From positions 64,001-128,000 of the forward strand of contig CAZVGK010000001.1 in the NCBI GenBank assembly GCA_964626665.1: a stretch of 64,000 bases of DNA, written 5' to 3'. The notes beneath the pieces were generated by a model that did not search any database, was not told where the DNA came from, and worked only from the letters and a program-made list of their open reading frames with translations. This document shows, in pieces, positions 4,550 through 41,219 of this stretch. Numbering within the stretch: position 1 is the first letter of the stretch; each line of letters starts with the position of its first letter. The DNA comes from an uncultured Gemmatimonadota bacterium (lineage in GTDB: Bacteria > SM23-81 > DAOVCL01). A program made the position numbers and the translations under genes.

Positions 4550-7500
4550 ATGAAAGCACGCATGTTTGTCTGCTTTGTGGCCCTGGTTTTGGTAGGCGTC
4601 GTTGCCATACCGGCTTTTGGCCAGAACCTATTTGTGAAAACCCTGGGGGGAGCCAGCATAGATTATGGGCACTCTGTGGTAGAGGTTTCTGATGGCTTGT
4701 CGTTGCCGGAGTCACTTACAGTTATGGCGCAGGTGATGAAGATCTCCTCCTGGCTAAGCTTGATGGTTCAGGCAATCACCTGTGGACAAAAACCCTGGGG
4801 GGAACCGGCCATGATAGGGGGATCTCTGTGGTAGAGGTTTCTGATGGGGGGCTTGTCGTTGCCGGAGTCACTTACAGTTATGGCGCAGGTGATGAAGATC
4901 TCCTCCTGGCTAAGCTTGATGGTTCAGGCAATCACCTGTGGACAAAAACCCTGGGGGGAACCGGCCATGATAGGGGGATCTCTGTGGTAGAGGTTTCTGA
5001 TGGGGGGCTTGTCGTTGCCGGAGTCACTTACAGTTATGGCGCAGGTGATGAAGATCTCCTCCTGGCTAAGCTTGATGGTTCAGGCAATCACCTGTGGACA
5101 AAAACCCTGGGGGGAACCGGCCATGATAGGGGGATCTCTGTGGTAGAGGTTTCTGATGGGGGGCTTGTCGTTGCCGGAGTCACTTACAGTTATGGCGCAG
5201 GTGATGAAGATCTCCTCCTGGCTAAGCTTGATGGTTCAGGCAATCACCTGTGGACAAAAACCCTGGGGGGAACCGGCCATGATAGGGGGATCTCTGTGGT
5301 AGAGGTTTCTGATGGGGGGCTTGTCGTTGCCGGAGTCACTTACAGTTATGGCGCAGGTGATGAAGATCTCCTCCTGGCTAAGCTTGATGGTTCAGGCAAT
5401 CACCTGTGGACAAAAACCCTGGGGGGAACCGGCCATGATAGGGGGATCTCTGTGGTAGAGGTTTCTGATGGGGGGCTTGTCGTTGCCGGAGTCACTTACA
5501 GTTATGGCGCAGGTGATGAAGATCTCCTCCTGGCTAAGCTTGATGGCTCAGGCAATCACCTGTGGACAAAAACCCTGGGGGGAACCAACTGGGATAGGGG
5601 GTACTCTGTGGTAGAGGTTTCTGATGGTGGGCTTGTGGTTGCCGGAGGCACTGAGAGTTACGGCGCAGGTTCTTGGGATCTCCTCCTGGCCAAGTTTGAT
5701 GCTGATGGCAATACCTGTATGGGGGAGTTTGTCACTCCCACCGTCCAGAGCGTCTCTCCTACCATAAACACCTGGGACCCCACAGTCAACACTTGGTCGC
5801 CGACCATTACCAGTCCTACTCCCACGATCACTTCTCCTGAGCCAACGCTAACAACCGTGTGCGAAGAATGTGGGGACCTTTACTTTCGGCCTAACTCCGA
5901 CGGTTGGGGATTTAAGAATAAAGCTGATAATATGTGGCCAAAGAGTTGGTGGCAACAGTTTAATTACTGCCAATCTCCATACCCATTCCTTTGGTGTTAC
6001 CTATGCAAATCTTCAGACTTTCCGGATTGGCCACTTTTCGTATCCGCATTTGGAGAGGATCAATGCTACTGGAATCCGCCGCCCGGTTCGGTGATCTATA
6101 AGCCATCGGCGGTGAGGAAATGGTTTGCAATCAAAGGAGGTTGGAACGGCTCTTGCTTTGGATTCGCCATATCGAGCTTTCTTTTCTTTGACAATTATCT
6201 GCACCTTTCCAGCGAATTCCCCGGCTATTTGCAGCTTTATTCAGTTCCGCTCGGCGATGAGAGCCGGTTGATGATAAACAAATACATGATCTATCAGGTC
6301 GGCAAAGCGCAACAAGAATATATAGATGCCAACTATAACACCACCACACCACACCAAACTCTCCAGGCCTGTAAGGATATGTTCAATTCCTCTTATCGCG
6401 ACGACAGGATACTTCTTATGCACAATAACCACGGTGGCGGTGGCCACACCGTCAATCCATACAGATGTGAAGTTAATCCCGAAAATCCTGAAAAAACGTA
6501 CATTTATGTGTGCGATAGCAATAACCCCGGAGAGGAGCGAAAGATTATCATCAATACTGCCACTAATATTTGGGCATACTCGGGAAAGCCCACATGGGGA
6601 GGGAAAAAGCACCTTTTTCTGAGTGATCCTATGAGCAATTACACCACAAACCCGATTCTACGCACTTCCATCCCTCCTCAGGATAGGTGGGCGAACGGAA
6701 AGGCTATGCTGAACTCTGAATATATTGAGTTTTACATCTCATTTACAGACACCGCTCTTTTCGAGTCTCCTGCTGGGAATATTGGCCATATCGGGGATTC
6801 TCTCTTCACTACACTTTCGGAAGGCCATCCAATCATATCTCTAACTGGAGAAGAGGTTTTGCCTATAGGGTACTACCTACCCAACGATACCTGGACTTGC
6901 CAGTTCTCAGACATAGCTGATTCGACATTCCGTCTGAGCCTATTTACTGATTCCACTGTAATTGTATACTCGCGGACAGAAGCCGATAGCACCCAAGGCG
7001 AGAGGCTTCGTTATCCCGGAAATGATAGCACGCTTTGGGTTGGTAATCCTGACCCTTACACGCGATCCTACGATCTTGAAGTTATTTCTGTTGCCCCTGA
7101 TTCGGAGATAGTTTGCGGCATACATAATATCTCTATTGACCAGAGTGATTCAGCTTGCTACTCAATCACTCCTGTATCGGGATTACAACTTGACAATTAT
7201 GGAGGACAAAAGACCTATGATTTGCAGGTTGAGATCGTAGGCGATAATGTTGACACGGTGTTTTTCCATGGTAATATAGCGCTAAGCGGAAGCACCGCAC
7301 ATCAAATTATCTCGGATTGGCGTCAAAATGGGGATACCCTTATGGTTTTAGTTGACGAGGGTATGGAGGGAGATTTTTCAGATACCATTCGCCTTGCAAA
7401 TGAATGGGTGCCTGTTGTCACTGGTGAGCCGAAGATATTGCCCACCGAATTCTCCCTCTCCCAAAACTACCCCAACCCGTTTAACTCCACTACTCTGATA

Positions 7501-33340: not shown

Positions 33341-33591
33341 CCTCTGGTGACGGTGCAGATTCTCTGGCTTAATCCCCCTTAATTCACATTCCACCAGAGT
33401 ATAATCCTAACATATGCGGTGCAGATTCGTAGGCTTCGCTAACTTACAGTAAAACAGGCACTTATCATTGAAATATTGAGAGATATGGGAAAAATTGGAG
33501 AAGAAATAAACTGTGAAGATTATATGATTTTAAGAGTTCGTCTGTTGCACGAGGTACACCTTAAAACTATTTGCTATCCAAATAGAAAAGC

Positions 33592-33627
33592 TTGACTTTT
33601 TTTGATATCTGATATATTATATATCAG
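33592..33627 (+). promoter_or_regulatory. Promoter with overlapping operator palindrome
   Basis: TTGACT-17-TATTAT; CTGATATAT-T-ATATATCAG at 33609-33627 covers the -10 box. Confidence 0.7.
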
Positions 33628-33640
33628 TTGGGAGGTAAAA

Positions 33641-34375
33641 ATGGATAATGAAAATGGGCTTTTGAATCTCAAATCGCTTAAACAGCAGGTTTACGAATAT
33701 TTAAGGAAACAGATGGGCAAAGGAAATATCCTTCCAGGCTCGGTTATAAATCTCAATAAGACTGCAAAGCAGCTTGGGATAAGCAAGACTCCTCTGAGGG
33801 AAGCCCTTATCCAGCTTGAGATGGATGAATTCGTCAGGATTCTACCAAGGAAAGGAATTGTTGTGAATGTTTTAACTCTCAGGGATATAAAGGATTTTTA
33901 CCAGCTCATAGGTTCTCTTGAAAGGTCGGCTGTGCTTTCTGCATTCGCAAAAATAGGAAGGGAAAAAATAGAAGAGATGGAGAAGCTCAATAGGAAAATG
34001 CAAGAGGCCATAGAAAACGGTGGTTTTGATATCTATTACCAGAAGAACTTAGAATTTCACAATACATATCTTAATCTTTGTCAGAACAAACACCTTGTTA
34101 AGATAGTAAATACCCTTAAGAAAAGACTTTACGATTTCCCGCGACAGAGGGGATATCTAAAAGAATGGGAAGAAGCTTCAATAAAGGAGCACGAGAAGTT
34201 TCTAAATTTCTTAAAAGAAAATAACCCCAGGTTAGCAGCAGACTATATCAGGGATGTCCACTGGTTCTTTGAAGTCCAGAAAAAGTTCATTAAGAAGTAT
34301 TATCCTCTAAAGGAATATCAGAAAAGATTAGAGGAAACCCTTGGGGAAAGATATACGAAGGAAGCCGTTGATTAA
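33641..34375 (+). CDS. GntR/FCD family transcriptional regulator
   Basis: LGISKTPLREALIQLE HTH; FH and EH motifs of the FCD domain. Confidence 0.92.
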   Translation: MDNENGLLNLKSLKQQVYEYLRKQMGKGNILPGSVINLNKTAKQLGISKTPLREALIQLEMDEFVRILPRKGIVVNVLTLRDIKDFYQLIGSLERSAVLSAFAKIGREKIEEMEKLNRKMQEAIENGGFDIYYQKNLEFHNTYLNLCQNKHLVKIVNTLKKRLYDFPRQRGYLKEWEEASIKEHEKFLNFLKENNPRLAADYIRDVHWFFEVQKKFIKKYYPLKEYQKRLEETLGERYTKEAVD

Positions 34376-35270
34376 AGGTATGATATTTGATATAAAAAGA
34401 TATGCCATCCACGATGGGCCTGGAATAAGAACGACAATATTTTTTAAAGGCTGTCCTCTAAGATGCCCATGGTGCCACAACCCGGAGGGTGTAAAAAAAG
34501 AGCAGGAAATTATGTTGTGGCAGGACAGATGCACAAAATGCGGTGATTGTGTCCCCGTGTGTCCTTACAGGGCAATTTCCATAGACAGAAATCTTTCCAT
34601 TGATTGGGGAAAATGTGACCTCTGCGGGGAATGTATAAAAGTATGCCATCCAAAGGCAATAGAAATGGTGGGAAGAGAAATTTCCGTTGAAGAGGTGGTG
34701 AGGGAAATAGAAAAGGACATAGTTTTCTACGATGAATCAGGTGGAGGAGCAACTTTCTCAGGGGGAGAGCCGTTCTTCCAGCCGAAATTTCTTGAGGCCC
34801 TTCTAAAAGAATGCAAGAAAAGATACATAAACACGGCAGTTGATACCTCAGGCTATGTTAGCAAGGAAATTCTCTCAGGGCTAAGCGACTATATTGACCT
34901 TTTCCTCTATGATTTAAAGATAATGGACAGTGAAAAGCACAGTAAATACACAGGGGTACCAAACGAATTGATTCTTGAAAATTTGAGGGAGCTTTTGAAA
35001 AGGGGAAAAAGAGTAAATGTTCGCCTTCCCCTTATTCCAAAAGTAAATGGTGATAGAAAGGGTATAGAGAAAACAGGTGAGTTCCTCGCATCTCTTCCTA
35101 ACCTAAAAGGTGTAAATCTTCTTCCTTATCACAATACCTGGGTCAATAAATTTAAGAGACTCTCAAGGGAGTGGAAACCATATATAACTCCTCCTCTATC
35201 CCGGGAAAAGGTGGAGGAAGTGAAATCAAGACTTGAGAAATATGGGTTGGAAATAAAAATAGGAGGGTAA
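34368..35270 (+). CDS. Glycyl-radical enzyme activating enzyme (radical SAM with ferredoxin insert)
   Basis: HDGPGIRT, CPLRCPWCHNPE, two CxxCxxCxxxC motifs, SGGEP. Confidence 0.96.
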   Translation: MIKGMIFDIKRYAIHDGPGIRTTIFFKGCPLRCPWCHNPEGVKKEQEIMLWQDRCTKCGDCVPVCPYRAISIDRNLSIDWGKCDLCGECIKVCHPKAIEMVGREISVEEVVREIEKDIVFYDESGGGATFSGGEPFFQPKFLEALLKECKKRYINTAVDTSGYVSKEILSGLSDYIDLFLYDLKIMDSEKHSKYTGVPNELILENLRELLKRGKRVNVRLPLIPKVNGDRKGIEKTGEFLASLPNLKGVNLLPYHNTWVNKFKRLSREWKPYITPPLSREKVEEVKSRLEKYGLEIKIGG

Positions 35271-35271
35271 A

Positions 35272-37635
35272 ATGACTGAGAGGGTAAAAAAATTAAGGCA
35301 AAAAAGCGTAAACACGGAACCCTATGTTTCATCGGAAAGGGCTGAGCTTCTGACAGAATTTTACAGGTCTGGTGTGCCGCACAGGGTGGCGACCCCGATT
35401 ACCCGTGCCTTAGCGCTTAAATACATAATGGAGCACAAGAAGATTTCCATAGATGAAGGGGAGCTAATAGTTGGAGAGAGGGGACCTGCTCCAAGGTCAA
35501 CTCCGACATATCCTGAACTCTGCACCCATACTCTAAAGGACTTTGAGGTAATGAGCAGCAGAGATAAGACAAGGTTCCAGGTTTCAGATGAGGTGAAGAA
35601 GGTTTACAGAGAGAAAATAATTCTGTTCTGGGAGGGAAAAACTATGAGGGAAAGGGTCTTTGGAACTATGTCAAAGGAATGGCACGATACTTTTGAAGCA
35701 GGAGTTTTTACAGAGTTTATGGAGCAGCGAGCACCTGGACATGCAATATTGGATGACAAGATTTACCATAAGGGTATGGAAGATTTCAAGGGAAAAATAG
35801 ATGAAAGGATAACACAACTGGATTATTTCAATGACCCTGATGCATATAAAAAGGAACAGGAGCTTAAAGCTATGAAAATTGCGGCAGACGCCATCACAAT
35901 CCTTGCAGGCAGATACTCAAAGCTTGCAAAGCAGCTCGCAGAGAAGGAGAAAAATCCTCAGAGGAAAAATGAACTTGAAAAAATTGCCGGGGTTTGCTCT
36001 TATGTCCCCACCCATGCCCCAAGGGATTTCTGGGAAGCTCTCCAGATGTACTGGTTCATCCACCTTGGGGTTATAACTGAGCTGAATGTATGGGATTCGT
36101 TTAATCCGGGCCGCATTGACCTTAACCTTTATCTTTTTTACAAAAAGGACATTGAGGAAGGAAAACTCTCAGGGGATTTTGCAAAGGAACTCCTTGAATG
36201 CTTCTGGATAAAATTCAACAACCAGCCAGCTCCTCCTAAAGTAGGTGTAACAGAGGAACAAAGTGCAACCTATCAGGATTTTTCTCTTATAAATGTTGGG
36301 GGACTCAAAAAGGATGGTTCAAATGCTGTAAACGAACTTTCATATCTCACGCTTGATGTCCTTGAAGAAATGGAAATAATGATGCCGAGCGTATGCGTTC
36401 AGCTCAGCAAGAAAAACCCTGATGCTTTTCTGAAAAGGGCAATTAAGGTTGTAAAGAAAGGTTTCGGCCAGCCATCCTTCTTCAATACAGATGCCATAAT
36501 CATGGAATTTCTGAGACAGGGAAAAAGCATTGAAGATGCAAGACTTGGAGGACCAAGCGGATGCGTAACAATAAGTGCCTTTGGAAAGGAAAGCTGCACC
36601 CTCACAGGGTATATGAACTGGCCCAAGATACTGGAGATTACACTAAACAATGGTATAGACCCTCGTACAGGGAAAAAGGTGGGGATAGAAACTGGGAAAC
36701 CAGAGAACTTCAAGAGCTTTGAGGATCTTATGGAAACTTACAGAAAACAGCTAAAATACTTTGTGGATATAAAGATCAAGGGAAACAGCATAATAGAAAG
36801 GCTCTATGCCCAATATATGCCAGCTCCTTTCATGTCCCTTCTCATGGATGATTGCATAAAAAAGGGAAGAGACTATCACGATGGAGGACCCAGATATAAT
36901 ACAACATACATCCAGGGAGTCGGAATGGGAACTATTACAGACTCCTTATCCGCTATAAAATACCATGTGTATGATAAGAGAAACCTTGAAATGAATGAAC
37001 TTCTGAAAGCTCTGAGGAAGAATTTTGAGGATAACGAAAAGATAAGACAGATGCTGTGGAACGAAGCTCCAAAATACGGGAATGACGATGATTACGCGGA
37101 TAAGATTGCAAAGGAAATTTTTGAAGCCTATTTCAAAGTTTTAGATGGAAGACCCAACACAAAAGGTGGAAAATACAGGGTAAATCTCCTTCCAACAACT
37201 GTCCACATATACTTCGGAAAAGTCACAGGTGCAACCCCCAATGGAAGGAAAGCAGGTGAGCCTTTATCCGATGGTGTTTCCCCAACTCAGGGTGCTGATA
37301 AATATGGTCCAACAGCAGCGGTAAAGTCCGTCGCAAAATTTGACCATATAAGAACAGGAGGAACTCTCCTCAATCAGAAATTTATGCCCAAGCTCCTTGA
37401 AGATGATGAGGGTATTGACAAACTTGCCTATTTAGTGAGAACCTATTTCAGGTATGACGGGCACCATATTCAATTCAATGTTATCAGCGCAAAAACCCTC
37501 AGGGAAGCCCAGAAATACCCTGAAAAATACAAAAACCTCATAGTGAGGGTTGCAGGTTACAGCGATTACTTCGTTAATCTCGGCAGTGACCTTCAGAATG
37601 AAATAATCGCAAGAACAGAGCATGAAAATTTTTAA
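35272..37635 (+). CDS. HypD-like glycyl radical enzyme with variant Cys loop
   Basis: FTEFMEQRAPGH, NNQPAPPKVG, RVAGYS (Gly762); Cys loop SGCVT instead of SGCVE. Confidence 0.9.
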   Translation: MTERVKKLRQKSVNTEPYVSSERAELLTEFYRSGVPHRVATPITRALALKYIMEHKKISIDEGELIVGERGPAPRSTPTYPELCTHTLKDFEVMSSRDKTRFQVSDEVKKVYREKIILFWEGKTMRERVFGTMSKEWHDTFEAGVFTEFMEQRAPGHAILDDKIYHKGMEDFKGKIDERITQLDYFNDPDAYKKEQELKAMKIAADAITILAGRYSKLAKQLAEKEKNPQRKNELEKIAGVCSYVPTHAPRDFWEALQMYWFIHLGVITELNVWDSFNPGRIDLNLYLFYKKDIEEGKLSGDFAKELLECFWIKFNNQPAPPKVGVTEEQSATYQDFSLINVGGLKKDGSNAVNELSYLTLDVLEEMEIMMPSVCVQLSKKNPDAFLKRAIKVVKKGFGQPSFFNTDAIIMEFLRQGKSIEDARLGGPSGCVTISAFGKESCTLTGYMNWPKILEITLNNGIDPRTGKKVGIETGKPENFKSFEDLMETYRKQLKYFVDIKIKGNSIIERLYAQYMPAPFMSLLMDDCIKKGRDYHDGGPRYNTTYIQGVGMGTITDSLSAIKYHVYDKRNLEMNELLKALRKNFEDNEKIRQMLWNEAPKYGNDDDYADKIAKEIFEAYFKVLDGRPNTKGGKYRVNLLPTTVHIYFGKVTGATPNGRKAGEPLSDGVSPTQGADKYGPTAAVKSVAKFDHIRTGGTLLNQKFMPKLLEDDEGIDKLAYLVRTYFRYDGHHIQFNVISAKTLREAQKYPEKYKNLIVRVAGYSDYFVNLGSDLQNEIIARTEHENF

Positions 37636-37686
37636 AAAAGGAGATATAAATTTTCAAAACTGAAATTTATGTGAAAAGGAGGAAAA

Positions 37687-38880
37687 ATGAGAGCAAAATT
37701 CGATTGGAAACCTCCAGAAGATTGGCCTGTGATTTTCACAATAGATGCGCATGCAGGAGGAGAACCTCTGAGGATAATTGTAGGAGGGCTCCCCAAAATT
37801 CCTGGGAAAACAATACTTGAAAAGAGAAGGTATGCCATGGAGAACCTGGACTACCTGAGGAAAGGACTTATGGGGGAACCGAGAGAACATGCAGATATGT
37901 ATGGAGCAATAATCACAGAACCAGTTTCATCAGAAGCAGATCTAGGAGTGCTTTTCCTTCACAATGAGGGATTTAGCACGATGTGTGGCCATGGAATTAT
38001 AGGGCTCACCACAGTGTTGCTTGAGACAGGGATACTACCCATGGAAGCTCCTGAAACAGTGCTCAAAATAGATGCACCTGCAGGGCTTATTACTGCCCAT
38101 GCAAGGATAAAAGGAAATAGGGTGAAAAGTGTCTATTTCCACAACGTTCCGTCTTTTGTCCTTGTTCTTGATGAAACTCTAAATGTTCCAGGAATCGGTA
38201 AGGTTAAATACGACATTGCCTTTGGCGGTGCATTTTATGCCTTTATAAATGCGGAAGAAATAGGTCTTTCCTGTAATCCCGAAAATTACAGGGAGCTTAT
38301 AGCGAAAGGAACAGCAATAAAAAAAGCGGTTATGAAAACAAGACCAATAAACCACCCATTTGATAAAGATTTAAGTTTTCTATACGGTACAATCTTTATT
38401 TGCCCGGCAGAAAAAAAATCCCACAGTAGAAATGTCTGCATATGAATATAAAGTCAACTCTTCCCATAAGGAGTTAATCCTATTATCTTGAAAGGGTTCT
38501 GAGACATTGAAGAGCGAAAGCACTTGTAGTCCCTGGAACTCATATAGAATTTAGGAAAAGTGTGTTGAGATTGAGAGTCAACCTTATATTCATATGTCTG
38601 CATATTTGCAGGGGGCGAAGTTGACAGGAGTCCAACGGGGACAGGTGTAAGTGCCAGGCTCGCTCTGAATTACGCAAGGGGAGAAATAAGTATTGAGCAG
38701 CCAATAGTGATTGAAAGCATTATTGGGACGAAATTTACAGGAAAGGTGGTGAGAGCTATAAAATTCGGACCATATAATGCAGTTATACCTGAGGTTGAAG
38801 GGAGCGCCCATATCGTGGGAAAGAACCAGTGGATTTTCGACCCCGAAGACCCTCTACAATTCGGATTTTTCCTGAGATGA
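37687..38880 (+). pseudogene. Proline racemase-family trans-3-hydroxy-L-proline dehydratase, interrupted by an insertion
   Basis: MCGHG in the 5' part; frame resumes NVCIFAGGEVDRSPTGTG...GFFLR after the insert; Cys/Thr catalytic pair. Confidence 0.88.
38442..38593. mobile_element. MITE of about 152 bp with target-site duplication
   Basis: Inverted ends ATGAATATAA / TTATATTCAT; direct repeat ATGTCTGCAT at 38432 and 38594. Confidence 0.9.
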
Positions 38881-39310
38881 ACTATAGGAAAATAAGATTT
38901 CTTTCTGCCCGGGATGTGAAAAGTTCTCTCTTCATGAAGGAAGCAATAGATGTAGTGGAAAAAACCTTTCTGCAGCTTTCAATGGGGAAGGCCACAGTCA
39001 CACAGCGCACAATTATGGAAATTTCGGGAGAGATTATTTTAAGAGCAAAGACAGTTATTGACCATAGGGAATCCTGTCTTGCCGAAGCTGGCGATCTCAT
39101 AATTCCTATGGAAGAAAGGCTTATAGACGAAAACCATATATGTGCAGAAATAGGTGAAATAATAGCTGGACAAAAGCCTGGAAGGGAAAACTCGGAAGAG
39201 GTGACATTTTCAAATCAGTTAGGAACGCTGTTCAGAATCTTGCAGCATCGAGTAAAGCTCTTGAAAATGCCGAAAATCTGAATCTGGGAATTGAAATTTC
39301 CCTGTTTTGA
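38877..39310 (+). pseudogene. Ornithine cyclodeaminase/mu-crystallin family gene with internal deletion and frameshift
   Basis: N-terminus FLSARDV..MKEAID joined directly to C-terminal EAGDL..AEIGE..GRENSEEVT; shifted frame FKSVRNAVQNL. Confidence 0.85.
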
Positions 39311-39329: not shown

Positions 39330-40234
39330 ATGGAAGATATAAGAACAAGAACTATAAAATCAGACCTTTTATTACTGCTCACGGCAGCCATCTGGGGCTT
39401 TGCCTTTGTTGCCCAGAGGGCAGGAATGAAATATGTGGGTCCCTTCACATTCAATGGAGTGCGCTTTGCTCTGGGAAGCCTGATCCTTATCCCATTACTT
39501 TTAATAAGAAAACCTCCAGTTCGGACAGCGAAACAAGGACTGGCTCTTCCTGGATTCCTTGCAGGCACTGCAATCTTCCTTGGCGCTTCTTTGCAACAAG
39601 TAGGCTTAATTTACACCACAGCAGGAAAAGCAGGCTTTATTACAGGATTGTATGTGATAATCGTTCCTATCCTTGGCCTTATAGGAGGAAAAGATCAGGG
39701 ACAGGAGTCTGGATTGGAGCACTCCTCGCAGTTGTTGGTCTCTATTTTCTCAGCATAAGAGCCAATTTTTCCATGGTAAAAGGAGATCTTCTGGTCCTTA
39801 CAGGGGCCTTTTTCTGGGCAGTACATGTTCATCTTATAGGAAAATTTTCCCCAAGAGTTGACACAATAAAGCTGGCATTTCTTCAGTTTGTAACTTGCTC
39901 TGGACTTAGCTTTATAGTGGCCATTCTTGTTGAAAAAATTAATCTGGCACAAATACTGGCTGCCTGGATTCCAATTATTTACGCAGGAATCTTCTCCTCA
40001 GGGATTGCCTACACACTTCAGGTAGTTGCGCAGAAGGAAGCACACCCATCCCATGCAGCTATAATCCTCAGTCTTGAGGCAGTCTTTGCCGTTATTGGTG
40101 GATGGATGATTTTAGGTGAGAGGCTCTCTGCAAGGGAGGTTTTGGGTTGTGTCCTTATGCTTGCAGGGATGATAATCTCCCAGCTCTATCTTTCTTACCT
40201 TCAAAGGAAAACAAAGAAGACGGTGGTTTTGTGA
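39330..40234 (+). pseudogene. EamA/DMT family transporter, frameshifted
   Basis: IWGFAFVAQR..AGFITGLY and AYTLQVVAQK..LSLEAVFA split across two frames near 39690. Confidence 0.85.
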
Positions 40235-40480: not shown

Positions 40481-40744
40481 TCAACTCCTGTATATCTCTT
40501 TCCGGTGTCGGACGGTATAGAGAATAATTTGGTCGCCCTCAATGTCGTACCTGATGCGGTAGGGCCAGGCCACCCAACGCCATCTGGCAAAGGGTTTGGC
40601 TTTTAGTTTTCGCCCTTGATAAGGGTCCTTGAGCAGGGAATCTAAGGCCCGGTCCACCTTTTTCCGATCATTGGGGGCGACCTTCTTTTTTAGATCTCTC
40701 AAGAAAGTGTCTGTGGGAACCAGCTTAAATTTGGCTTTAAGCAT
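40481..40744 (-). CDS. RelE/ParE family toxin
   Basis: FLRDLKK..DPYQGRKL..YRIRY..VRHRKEIY. Confidence 0.88.
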   Translation of the reverse strand: MLKAKFKLVPTDTFLRDLKKKVAPNDRKKVDRALDSLLKDPYQGRKLKAKPFARWRWVAWPYRIRYDIEGDQIILYTVRHRKEIYRS

Positions 40745-40747
40745 CTC

Positions 40748-41044
40748 TTAGGTATGTAAGATCTTTTTAATCTCCTCTGCTGTCCCCACTTTACCTTGTT
40801 CAAATTCCAGCCTTGCTTTTTCTAAGTCTTTTTGAAACTTAGAGTCTAACTCCTCAGCCATGGTATCAACCATATCCAGTAAATTCTCGTAATCTTCCAC
40901 AGCTAACATAACCGCCGCAGGTTTTTCCAGTTTGGTAATCAAATAAGGTTGATGACCATAACTTACTGTATCCAGAATTTCTCCTAAGTTGTTGCGTGCT
41001 TTTTTAGCACTAACAGTTTTGGGGGTTTTAAACATAGGTTTCAA
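40748..41044 (-). CDS. Phd/YefM family antitoxin
   Basis: VSAKKARNNLGEILD..ITKLEKPAAVML; upstream TTGACA-17-TATATC. Confidence 0.88.
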   Translation of the reverse strand: MKPMFKTPKTVSAKKARNNLGEILDTVSYGHQPYLITKLEKPAAVMLAVEDYENLLDMVDTMAEELDSKFQKDLEKARLEFEQGKVGTAEEIKKILHT

Positions 41045-41219
41045 TTTAATCCTCCTTGCTTAGGTGTGGAGTTTACCTACTTTCAAGATATAAAATATTC
41101 CCCAGGGTGTCAAGGATTTTCAAACAAAAAAATATGGAAGTTCATCTGGTTCACCTCTAATTTCGTTGATGGCATAAATCATTTATTTTCAGAAGGTTTT
41201 TGTCAGGCTATAAAATAGC

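Follow-up and report, generated by a model that had tools for sequence, protein, structure and literature searches.

The window analyzed here is a stretch of 64,000 nucleotides of DNA from an uncultured Gemmatimonadota bacterium (assembly GCA_964626665.1, contig CAZVGK010000001.1, positions 64,001 to 128,000). On its forward strand, a stop-free open reading frame (ORF) at positions 35272-37635 codes for a 787-amino-acid glycyl radical enzyme (GRE) that closely resembles HypD, the trans-4-hydroxy-L-proline dehydratase of C. difficile. In HypD the loop that carries the catalytic cysteine has the sequence Cys-x-Glu (CxE), whereas in the protein from the window the glutamate is replaced by threonine. 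The enzyme is a representative of a large group of proteins, nearly all of them CxT, which we term type II HypD-like enzymes.

The protein scores 1284.4 bits against NF043068, the NCBIfam equivalog model for trans-4-hydroxy-L-proline dehydratase, and exceeds its cut-off of 1100. Its Pfam domains are PFL-like and Gly_radical, the latter spanning residues 666-768. C. difficile HypD (PDB 6vxc) is the closest solved structure identified with phmmer (1060 bits). An AlphaFold2 model computed from a 40-sequence alignment, with a mean predicted local distance difference test (pLDDT) score of 88.1 and a predicted template modeling (pTM) score of 0.89, matches 6vxc in a whole-fold Foldseek comparison with a template modeling (TM) score of 0.98, a root mean square deviation of 1.4 Å, and 56% identity. 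Residue numbers in the query equal those of native HypD minus 3, and the 6vxc chain is numbered as native HypD plus 20.

The radical-bearing residue is Gly762, whose codon occupies positions 37555-37557 of the forward strand as computed from the start of the ORF and checked by translation. It lies in an RVAG762YS loop that conforms to the RVxG motif, and both this glycine and the thiyl-forming Cys431 are invariant in the family alignment (A1). Direct reading of positions 36562-36573 (forward strand) gives the codons TGC GTA ACA ATA for Cys431-Val432-Thr433-Ile, with the ACA codon beginning at 36568. The first three of these codons (36562-36570) align with Cys434-Val-Glu436 of HypD, and the phmmer alignment likewise places SGCVT of the query opposite SGCVE of 6vxc. 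The CxE motif is therefore absent from this GRE, and the equivalent of Glu436 is Thr433. A first-pass annotation of the window had described a HypD-like GRE that lacks this glutamate but retains an intact glycine loop, and our reading of the locus agrees with it in each of these respects.

All the other residues with published catalytic or substrate-binding roles in HypD are retained. They include (native HypD numbers in parentheses) H157 (H160), D275 (D278), S331 (S334), D336 (D339), F337 (F340), Y447 (Y450), T642 (T645), F149 (F152), R153 (R156), and K323 (K326). In the alignment of homologs described below, F149, R153, H157, D275, K323, S331, D336, F337, C431, Y447, L640, and T642 are invariant in 155 of 155 sequences with threonine and in 29 of 29 sequences with glutamate. 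The earlier proposal that the substrate contacts are preserved, as would fit a proline-ring substrate, is thus upheld over a far larger set of proteins.

The type II clade

To establish how widely the threonine is distributed, residues 300-560 were searched against a set of 5.8 billion proteins, from which about 8000 candidates were scored. Among the best 120 matches listed, 119 carry CVT and one carries CVE (P0055). A search of species-representative genomes found 402 relatives, of which the best 80 were kept as loci with L-numbers. Together with the window these make up 81 loci, 53 with CVT and 28 with CVE. Bacterial hosts of the threonine type among the 80 loci belong to Aminicenantes/Acidobacteriota, WOR-3, Synergistota, Latescibacterota, Planctomycetota, Bipolaricaulota, Thermotogota, and Chloroflexota; archaeal hosts belong to Bathyarchaeia, Thermoproteota, Thor-, Heimdall-, and Hermodarchaeota, and Theionarchaea. 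The threonine is specified by three synonymous codons across the clade (ACG 22, ACC 19, and ACA 18), which indicates that it is maintained at the protein level.

A nonredundant alignment of 184 sequences contains 155 with threonine and 29 with glutamate. The first-pass annotation had named a CVT loop unique to this genome as an outcome that would refute it, and this outcome is contradicted by the presence of threonine in 155 of 184 homologs. We define type II by the presence of W450, which gathers 159 sequences (155 Thr and 4 Glu), and type I comprises the remaining 25, all with glutamate. The two types are separated nearly perfectly at a shell of additional positions, given here as type II/type I: A158/T161, Q330/E333, E328/A-L331, Q335/T338, C375/N-M-S378, P428/T-S-A431, I434/T437, S435/G438, C442/Y445, C-M448/F451, W450/L453, and V644/C647. 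The query carries the type II signature A158, Q330, C375, P428, I434 (I or V in type II), S435, C442, and W450, and all four type II sequences with glutamate keep this signature as well. Two stretches near the active site that had been flagged as divergent, VTEEQSATYQDF and KESCTLTGY, are confirmed, and both are characteristic of the clade. An origin of the threonine by private mutation or decay is ruled out by the 155 threonine-bearing homologs and the three synonymous codons. Judged from these sequences, the threonine is a selected feature, and it is the mark of a deep, cross-phylum type II subfamily of HypD.

Phylogenetic analysis supports this division. In a tree of the 81 loci, the canonical Glu clade (25 rows) is split off with a Shimodaira-Hasegawa-like approximate likelihood ratio test (SH-aLRT) value of 100, and three rows with glutamate (L029, L037, and L079) are nested among those with threonine. 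When more genomes were added, the resulting 118-row tree placed 57 rows, all with glutamate, on the type I side and 61 rows (55 Thr and 6 Glu) on the type II side. Glutamate occurs in at least four places within type II, represented by L037, the L123-L125 clade, L029, and L079. The tree topology firmly indicates that glutamate and threonine have been exchanged repeatedly inside type II, at least four times, and each exchange requires two base changes. It indicates just as firmly that the type II branch equals type I in depth. When six distant GREs served as an outgroup, the root fell among the Thr sequences, but the support was weak (74-88) and the branches were long.

The gene cassette, its relatives, and its origin

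The GRE gene is the third member of a cassette on the forward strand. The first is a gene for a GntR/FCD-family transcriptional regulator (33602-34375; Pfam GntR and FCD), whose ratio of nonsynonymous to synonymous substitution rates (Ka/Ks) is 0.103 relative to the related locus L002. The second (34341-35270) codes for a radical SAM GRE activase with the motif CPLRCPWC and two ferredoxin-type cysteine clusters, for which the same ratio is 0.080. The activase scores 355 bits against TIGR02494 (cut-off 174), and its 383 bits against the HypD-activase model NF043069 fall under the cut-off of 425. As had been noted at first pass, this gene is intact.

The genes downstream are broken, which bears out an earlier caveat that the neighborhood is decaying. 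A proline-racemase family gene, trans-3-hydroxy-L-proline dehydratase-like, extends over 37687-38880 (forward strand), with the motifs STMCGHG and DRSPTGTG. Its pieces cover profile positions 7-244 and 240-335 of NF045511, and tblastn with the intact orthologue from L003 recovers amino acids 5-251 and 236-342 in one frame. The homolog is the Cys/Thr form, which we take to be the mark of the dehydratase type. The gene is split at 38441-38594 by a 154-bp insertion resembling a miniature inverted-repeat transposable element (MITE), with ~21-bp terminal inverted repeats and an 8-bp target duplication, TGTCTGCA. Removal of the element and one duplication (162 bp) would put the gene back in frame. 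A second copy, flanked by an 8-bp duplication of its own, TTCTGTGT, is intergenic on contig 29 of this genome (G000, ~6558-6711; L121). A single element position distinguishes the copies in the alignment, which suggests recent mobility.

Next lies the remnant of an ornithine cyclodeaminase (OCD)-family gene, Pyr2C-reductase-like (38877-39304, forward strand). With the L003 orthologue as the tblastn query, only amino acids 1-49, 234-302, and 298-329 were found, the last in another frame, and amino acids 50-233 are gone; the match to the NCBIfam OCD family covers profile positions 227-299 only. A DMT/EamA-type transporter gene (39330-40234, forward strand; partial match to TIGR00950) has a frameshift near 39700, such that tblastn finds amino acids 1-123 in frame 3 and 120-297 in frame 2. 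The M24B peptidase gene found in the corresponding Aminicenantes operon is absent from the window by tblastn. Just past the decayed operon, at 40481-41059 of the reverse strand, is a pair of small neighboring ORFs (88 and 103 amino acids), whose size and arrangement suggest a toxin-antitoxin pair.

More complete versions of this gene arrangement occur in related genomes. An activase gene is located upstream of the GRE gene in 55 loci. The order in Aminicenantes is GntR regulator, activase, GRE, M24B peptidase, proline-racemase homolog, OCD-family reductase, DMT transporter, and DUF4125, and the best NCBIfam match of the proline-racemase homolog is the trans-3-hydroxy-L-proline dehydratase model, below cut-off. 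Regulators of the GntR cluster lie about 900 nt upstream of the GRE gene in L002, L003, L004, L005, L009, and L035. M24B Xaa-Pro peptidase genes occur no more than 50 nt downstream both in loci with threonine (L002, L003, and L004) and in loci with glutamate (L061, L068, and L071).

Three Planctomycetota loci (L029, L030, and L036) share the order activase, GRE, lipoprotein M2/M3-like metallopeptidase, SSF symporter, and M24B peptidase; L029 carries glutamate and its sisters L030 and L036 carry threonine. The lipoprotein-type M2/M3-like metallopeptidase, which has an HExxH motif, directly follows the GRE in L030 (6883-8562), L036 (10426-12144), and L026 (3239-5044), and in L038 (8001-12008) the two frames form one ORF of 1335 amino acids, an apparent fusion. 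A second "GRE-like" ORF that appeared downstream in the Planctomycetota loci is this metallopeptidase, misgrouped by single-linkage clustering through the fused ORF. In Thermotogae, the loci additionally contain genes for an HTH/cupin regulator, HyuA/HyuB oxoprolinase-like proteins, a peptide-binding protein, and an M24 peptidase. In type II loci L066, L070, and L077 (~11.4-15.4 kb), the hydantoinase/oxoprolinase A and B genes lie between the GRE and M24 peptidase genes, a linkage that hints at related metabolism of another five-membered-ring amino acid. Asgard loci have ribosomal protein genes as neighbors and offer no metabolic context. Neither an epimerase nor an OrtAB-type thiolase was present among the annotated neighboring gene clusters, although no search aimed at either was made.

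Most carriers have a single copy of the gene. One HypD-like gene was found in each of five genomes checked. In the Acidobacteriota-type phylum, 62 of 301 sampled genomes have a match at E ≤ 1e-200, and 61 of these have one match; the 62nd has a second at only 43% identity. Thirty of the 62 matches were classified, as 27 Glu, 2 Thr, and 1 unreadable. In the Planctomycetota-type phylum, 11 of 301 genomes are positive with one match each (3 type II Thr, 3 type II Glu, and 5 type I). No sampled genome held both Thr and Glu types, with up to three candidates scored in many genomes. Paralogs of the two types within one genome, which would argue for different functions, were therefore sought among the sampled genomes and not found.

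The cassette appears to be foreign to its host. The phylum of the window is represented by only seven genomes in the collection, in which the sole other carrier has a type I Glu gene of 61% identity, and the GRE gene is absent from two genomes of the same genus (97% and 90% complete). In contrast, window positions 33591-37686 match positions 6320-10415 of L002, from a metagenome-assembled genome (MAG) titled as Acidobacteria, with 87.4% DNA identity. This homology ends at the edges of the regulator-activase-GRE block, and the flanks are unrelated. A 93%-identical GRE is also encoded in an Acidobacteriota-type genome (G082; L089). From the identity of the block, its unrelated flanks, and its absence from same-genus genomes, we infer that the cassette was likely acquired horizontally across phyla from an Aminicenantes-like donor. 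Base composition of the cassette is not distinct from that of its flanks.

Rates of change indicate that the GRE gene remains under purifying selection in this genome. Its Ka/Ks is 0.087 relative to L002, to which the protein is 93% identical, and the numbers of private amino acid changes (16 in the window lineage and 18 in L002; chi-square 0.12) reveal no acceleration. Judging by the amino acid pairs, G-to-A or C-to-T transitions account for roughly half of the 16 private changes. The protein deviates at nine positions where the clade is at least 90% conserved, P118L being one of them. Of the odd proline-to-leucine changes about which the first-pass annotation cautioned, two are private to this genome: P118L, which replaces a proline present in all of the 154 other Thr rows, and P288L, which affects a nearly invariant one.

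Proposed function and alternative explanations

The role of the missing glutamate is best considered from the mechanism of HypD. In the structural report (PMC7077986), Glu436 hydrogen-bonds to the leaving C4 hydroxyl group and lies 2.5 Å from His160, Asp278 is proposed to act as the base for the amine and as the acid for the leaving group, and the variants E436Q, H160Q, D278N, D339N, S334A, and F340A are listed as inactive. HypD is the one eliminase whose glutamate is not the ketyl-forming base, and a hydroxyl-bearing replacement is therefore conceivable. Furthermore, the same fold, substrate contacts, and peptidase linkage are found in both types, which favors the same reaction for type II. 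We lean toward the view that type II enzymes dehydrate peptide-derived trans-4-hydroxy-L-proline by using Asp275 and His157, with threonine as a hydrogen-bond partner.

By homology with HypD, the activase would install a radical on Gly762, which would then be passed to Cys431. The resulting thiyl radical would take a hydrogen atom from C5 of trans-4-hydroxy-L-proline, held in place through its carboxylate by S331, Y447, and T642, through its amine by D275 and D336, and through its ring by F337. Asp275 would serve as acid/base, and the C4 hydroxyl would depart to yield 1-pyrroline-5-carboxylate (P5C), with the hydroxyl of Thr433 and His157 replacing Glu436 in positioning and hydrogen-bonding the leaving group. 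The physiological role may be to process imino acids freed from Xaa-Pro and Xaa-Hyp (hydroxyproline) peptides. In this genome, the downstream partners have been inactivated, while the GRE and its activase are still maintained.

Several observations weigh against this proposal. Some of them speak for a rival reading, in which the regiochemistry of type II enzymes differs or their substrate is some other pyrrolidine; candidates include 3,4-dihydroxyproline, O-substituted hydroxyprolines, and other isomers of hydroxyproline. The E436Q variant of C. difficile HypD is inactive, which shows that the glutamate matters in the type I scaffold (PMC7077986), and a June 2026 review describes CxE as kept by all characterized C-O, C-N, and C-S eliminases and by the isomerases HplG, YbiW, and PflD (PMC13450708). 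Two acids are missing from type II through the changes E436T and E333Q (Q in 159 of 159 sequences), and no acid has been gained at 95% conservation or better among the 159 rows. A compensating conserved acid elsewhere in type II was considered and rejected, as the candidate E328 is glutamate in only 128 of 155 Thr rows. This represents a real electrostatic change that could reflect another substrate or protonation state, and the two lost acids together with smaller side chains would reshape the pocket around C4. The types are also split almost perfectly at about 10 covarying shell positions (including T161A, E333Q, N/M378C, Y445C, F451C/M, and L453W), as is usual between isofunctional subfamilies. 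The trans-3-hydroxy-L-proline dehydratase-like gene and OCD-family reductase of the Aminicenantes operons suggest that other isomers are handled nearby, and the HyuA/HyuB oxoprolinase-like genes of the Thermotogae loci point the same way. In addition, one MAG has two Thr-type copies (L039 and L041), so paralogs do exist, and no published assay of any type II enzyme was found in the literature searched. Finally, no match to proC (TIGR00112) was found in the genome of the window, which is 99.65% complete, whereas a control was matched in 14 of 14 genomes. It was found in only 2 of 11 Thr-type genomes, with none detected in G001, G002, G004, G005, G082, G315, G317, or G319, two of which are complete chromosomes. 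Nor was proC found in three of five Glu-type genomes tested, and its presence (2 of 11 compared with 2 of 5) is uninformative as a discriminator between types.

We nevertheless regard a change of substrate or regiochemistry as rather unlikely. The residues that bind the carboxylate, amine, and ring are invariant in both types, type II sisters with glutamate and threonine share one operon layout, the two types co-occur in no sampled genome, prolidase neighbors are common to both, and no epimerase is associated among the annotated neighbors, where no search was aimed at epimerases and the proline-racemase homolog is the Cys/Thr form. The first-pass annotation had favored different chemistry or regiochemistry. 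This claim finds no support in the at least four interchanges of glutamate and threonine, the layout of L029, the lack of co-occurrence, the common Xaa-Pro peptidases, and the fact that Glu436 is not the base. A separate concern applies to this genome's copy and not to the clade, namely that the gene is a relic without function that is turning into a pseudogene. The missing M24B gene, the MITE-split proline-racemase-like gene, the deleted and frameshifted OCD gene, and the frameshifted transporter gene are all suggestive of such a fate, as are the absence of the GRE gene from two same-genus genomes, the leucines at two invariant or nearly invariant prolines, and the fact that neither proC nor an AMP_N-type Xaa-Pro peptidase was found in this nearly complete genome. 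We consider it improbable, given that the 787-codon ORF, activase, and regulator are all intact, that the low Ka/Ks and lack of rate acceleration speak for constraint, and that only nine residues depart from well-conserved sites. Moreover, three aldehyde dehydrogenase genes are present in the genome and could carry P5C onward. One of the three (G000:C7:56685-58058; L119) contains an in-frame TAG. That the threonine codon stems from an error of sequencing or assembly, or from a single chance mutation, is hardly credible. The sole point in favor is that the genome is a 63-contig draft, whereas 155 independent sequences of numerous phyla and sources share the threonine, specified by three codons, and conversion of GAA to ACA needs two base changes.

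Resolving the activity of type II enzymes matters for reasons that extend beyond this locus. HypD is the classic example of a GRE eliminase whose CxE glutamate contacts the leaving group rather than serving as the base, and natural exchanges of glutamate and threonine in one scaffold constitute a ready-made experiment on what this residue does. There is some prospect, which we hold to be the less probable outcome, that the CxT type II protein is a functionally distinct GRE, either a dehydratase that operates without a Cys-loop carboxylate or an enzyme for a different, environmentally abundant pyrrolidine. If the former were true, the indispensability of the CxE glutamate in GRE eliminases would be overturned. 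If the latter, the substrate might be a hydroxyproline isomer, a dihydroxyproline, or an O-substituted hydroxyproline of algal or plant glycoproteins. In either case, sediment archaea (Bathyarchaeia and Asgard) and candidate bacterial phyla would use this enzyme as their chief anaerobic route for such compounds.

Among the 80 loci, type II holds the archaeal genes as well as many of those from candidate phyla and sediment bacteria, and some of its members are named trans-4-hydroxy-L-proline dehydratase by NCBI. Because the HypD model is passed and this name is applied, inferences about anaerobic turnover of hydroxyproline and collagen in sediments rest on an enzyme type assigned by sequence. 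Should the activity prove to be the same, the annotation will be validated and the mechanism refined; should it differ, an annotation that has spread widely is in error and there is a new reaction to be found.

Comparison with known glycyl radical enzymes

The enzyme shares with C. difficile HypD (6VXC/6VXE; NF043068) full-length homology, the glycine and cysteine loops, an adjacent activase, and all but one of the published hydroxyproline-contact and acid-base residues. It differs by the replacement of Glu436 with threonine, by E333Q, T161A, Y445C, L453W, T431P, G438S, and other changes, and by its position on a separate deep branch (SH-aLRT 100). Adjacency of proC is described for the clostridial hypD context in a 2018 survey (PMC6219649), whereas here no proC was found next to the gene or elsewhere in the genome. 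Glu-type environmental loci of the HypD family have the same linkage to Xaa-Pro peptidases as type II.

Other GREs that act on hydroxyproline rings are more distant. The N-methyl-cis-4-hydroxyproline dehydratases HpyG and HpzG (8ID1 and 8IOF) are likewise 4-hydroxyproline-ring GRE eliminases with a TM score of 0.94, but they are 33%-34% identical to the query and keep CxE as Glu437, according to the review (PMC13450708). HplG, the trans-4-hydroxy-D-proline C-N lyase (7VUA), also acts on a hydroxyproline isomer and has a TM score of 0.96, but it is 31% identical, keeps CxE as Glu429, and catalyzes ring opening instead of dehydration (PMC13450708). Loss of the glutamate is seen in uncharacterized PFL2-type GREs as well: among 132 full-length proteins representing query-related clusters at 50% identity, 35 are without it, and two unrelated ones carry CVT. 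Unlike the query, all 35 lack the HypD contact residues, and they are only 33%-42% identical to it.

The 2018 survey treated archaeal and thermophile sequences as HypD, forming a clade of their own, and the motif is not mentioned in the portion of its text consulted (PMC6219649). A description of a HypD-like enzyme with threonine at the CxE position was not found in the full-text literature, subscription-only papers and supplements aside. Because the defining CxE is absent, we class the protein as a type II HypD-like variant rather than a canonical HypD. The CxT type II HypD-like enzyme is a variant not previously described in the literature searched, and one that most likely carries out the same overall reaction.

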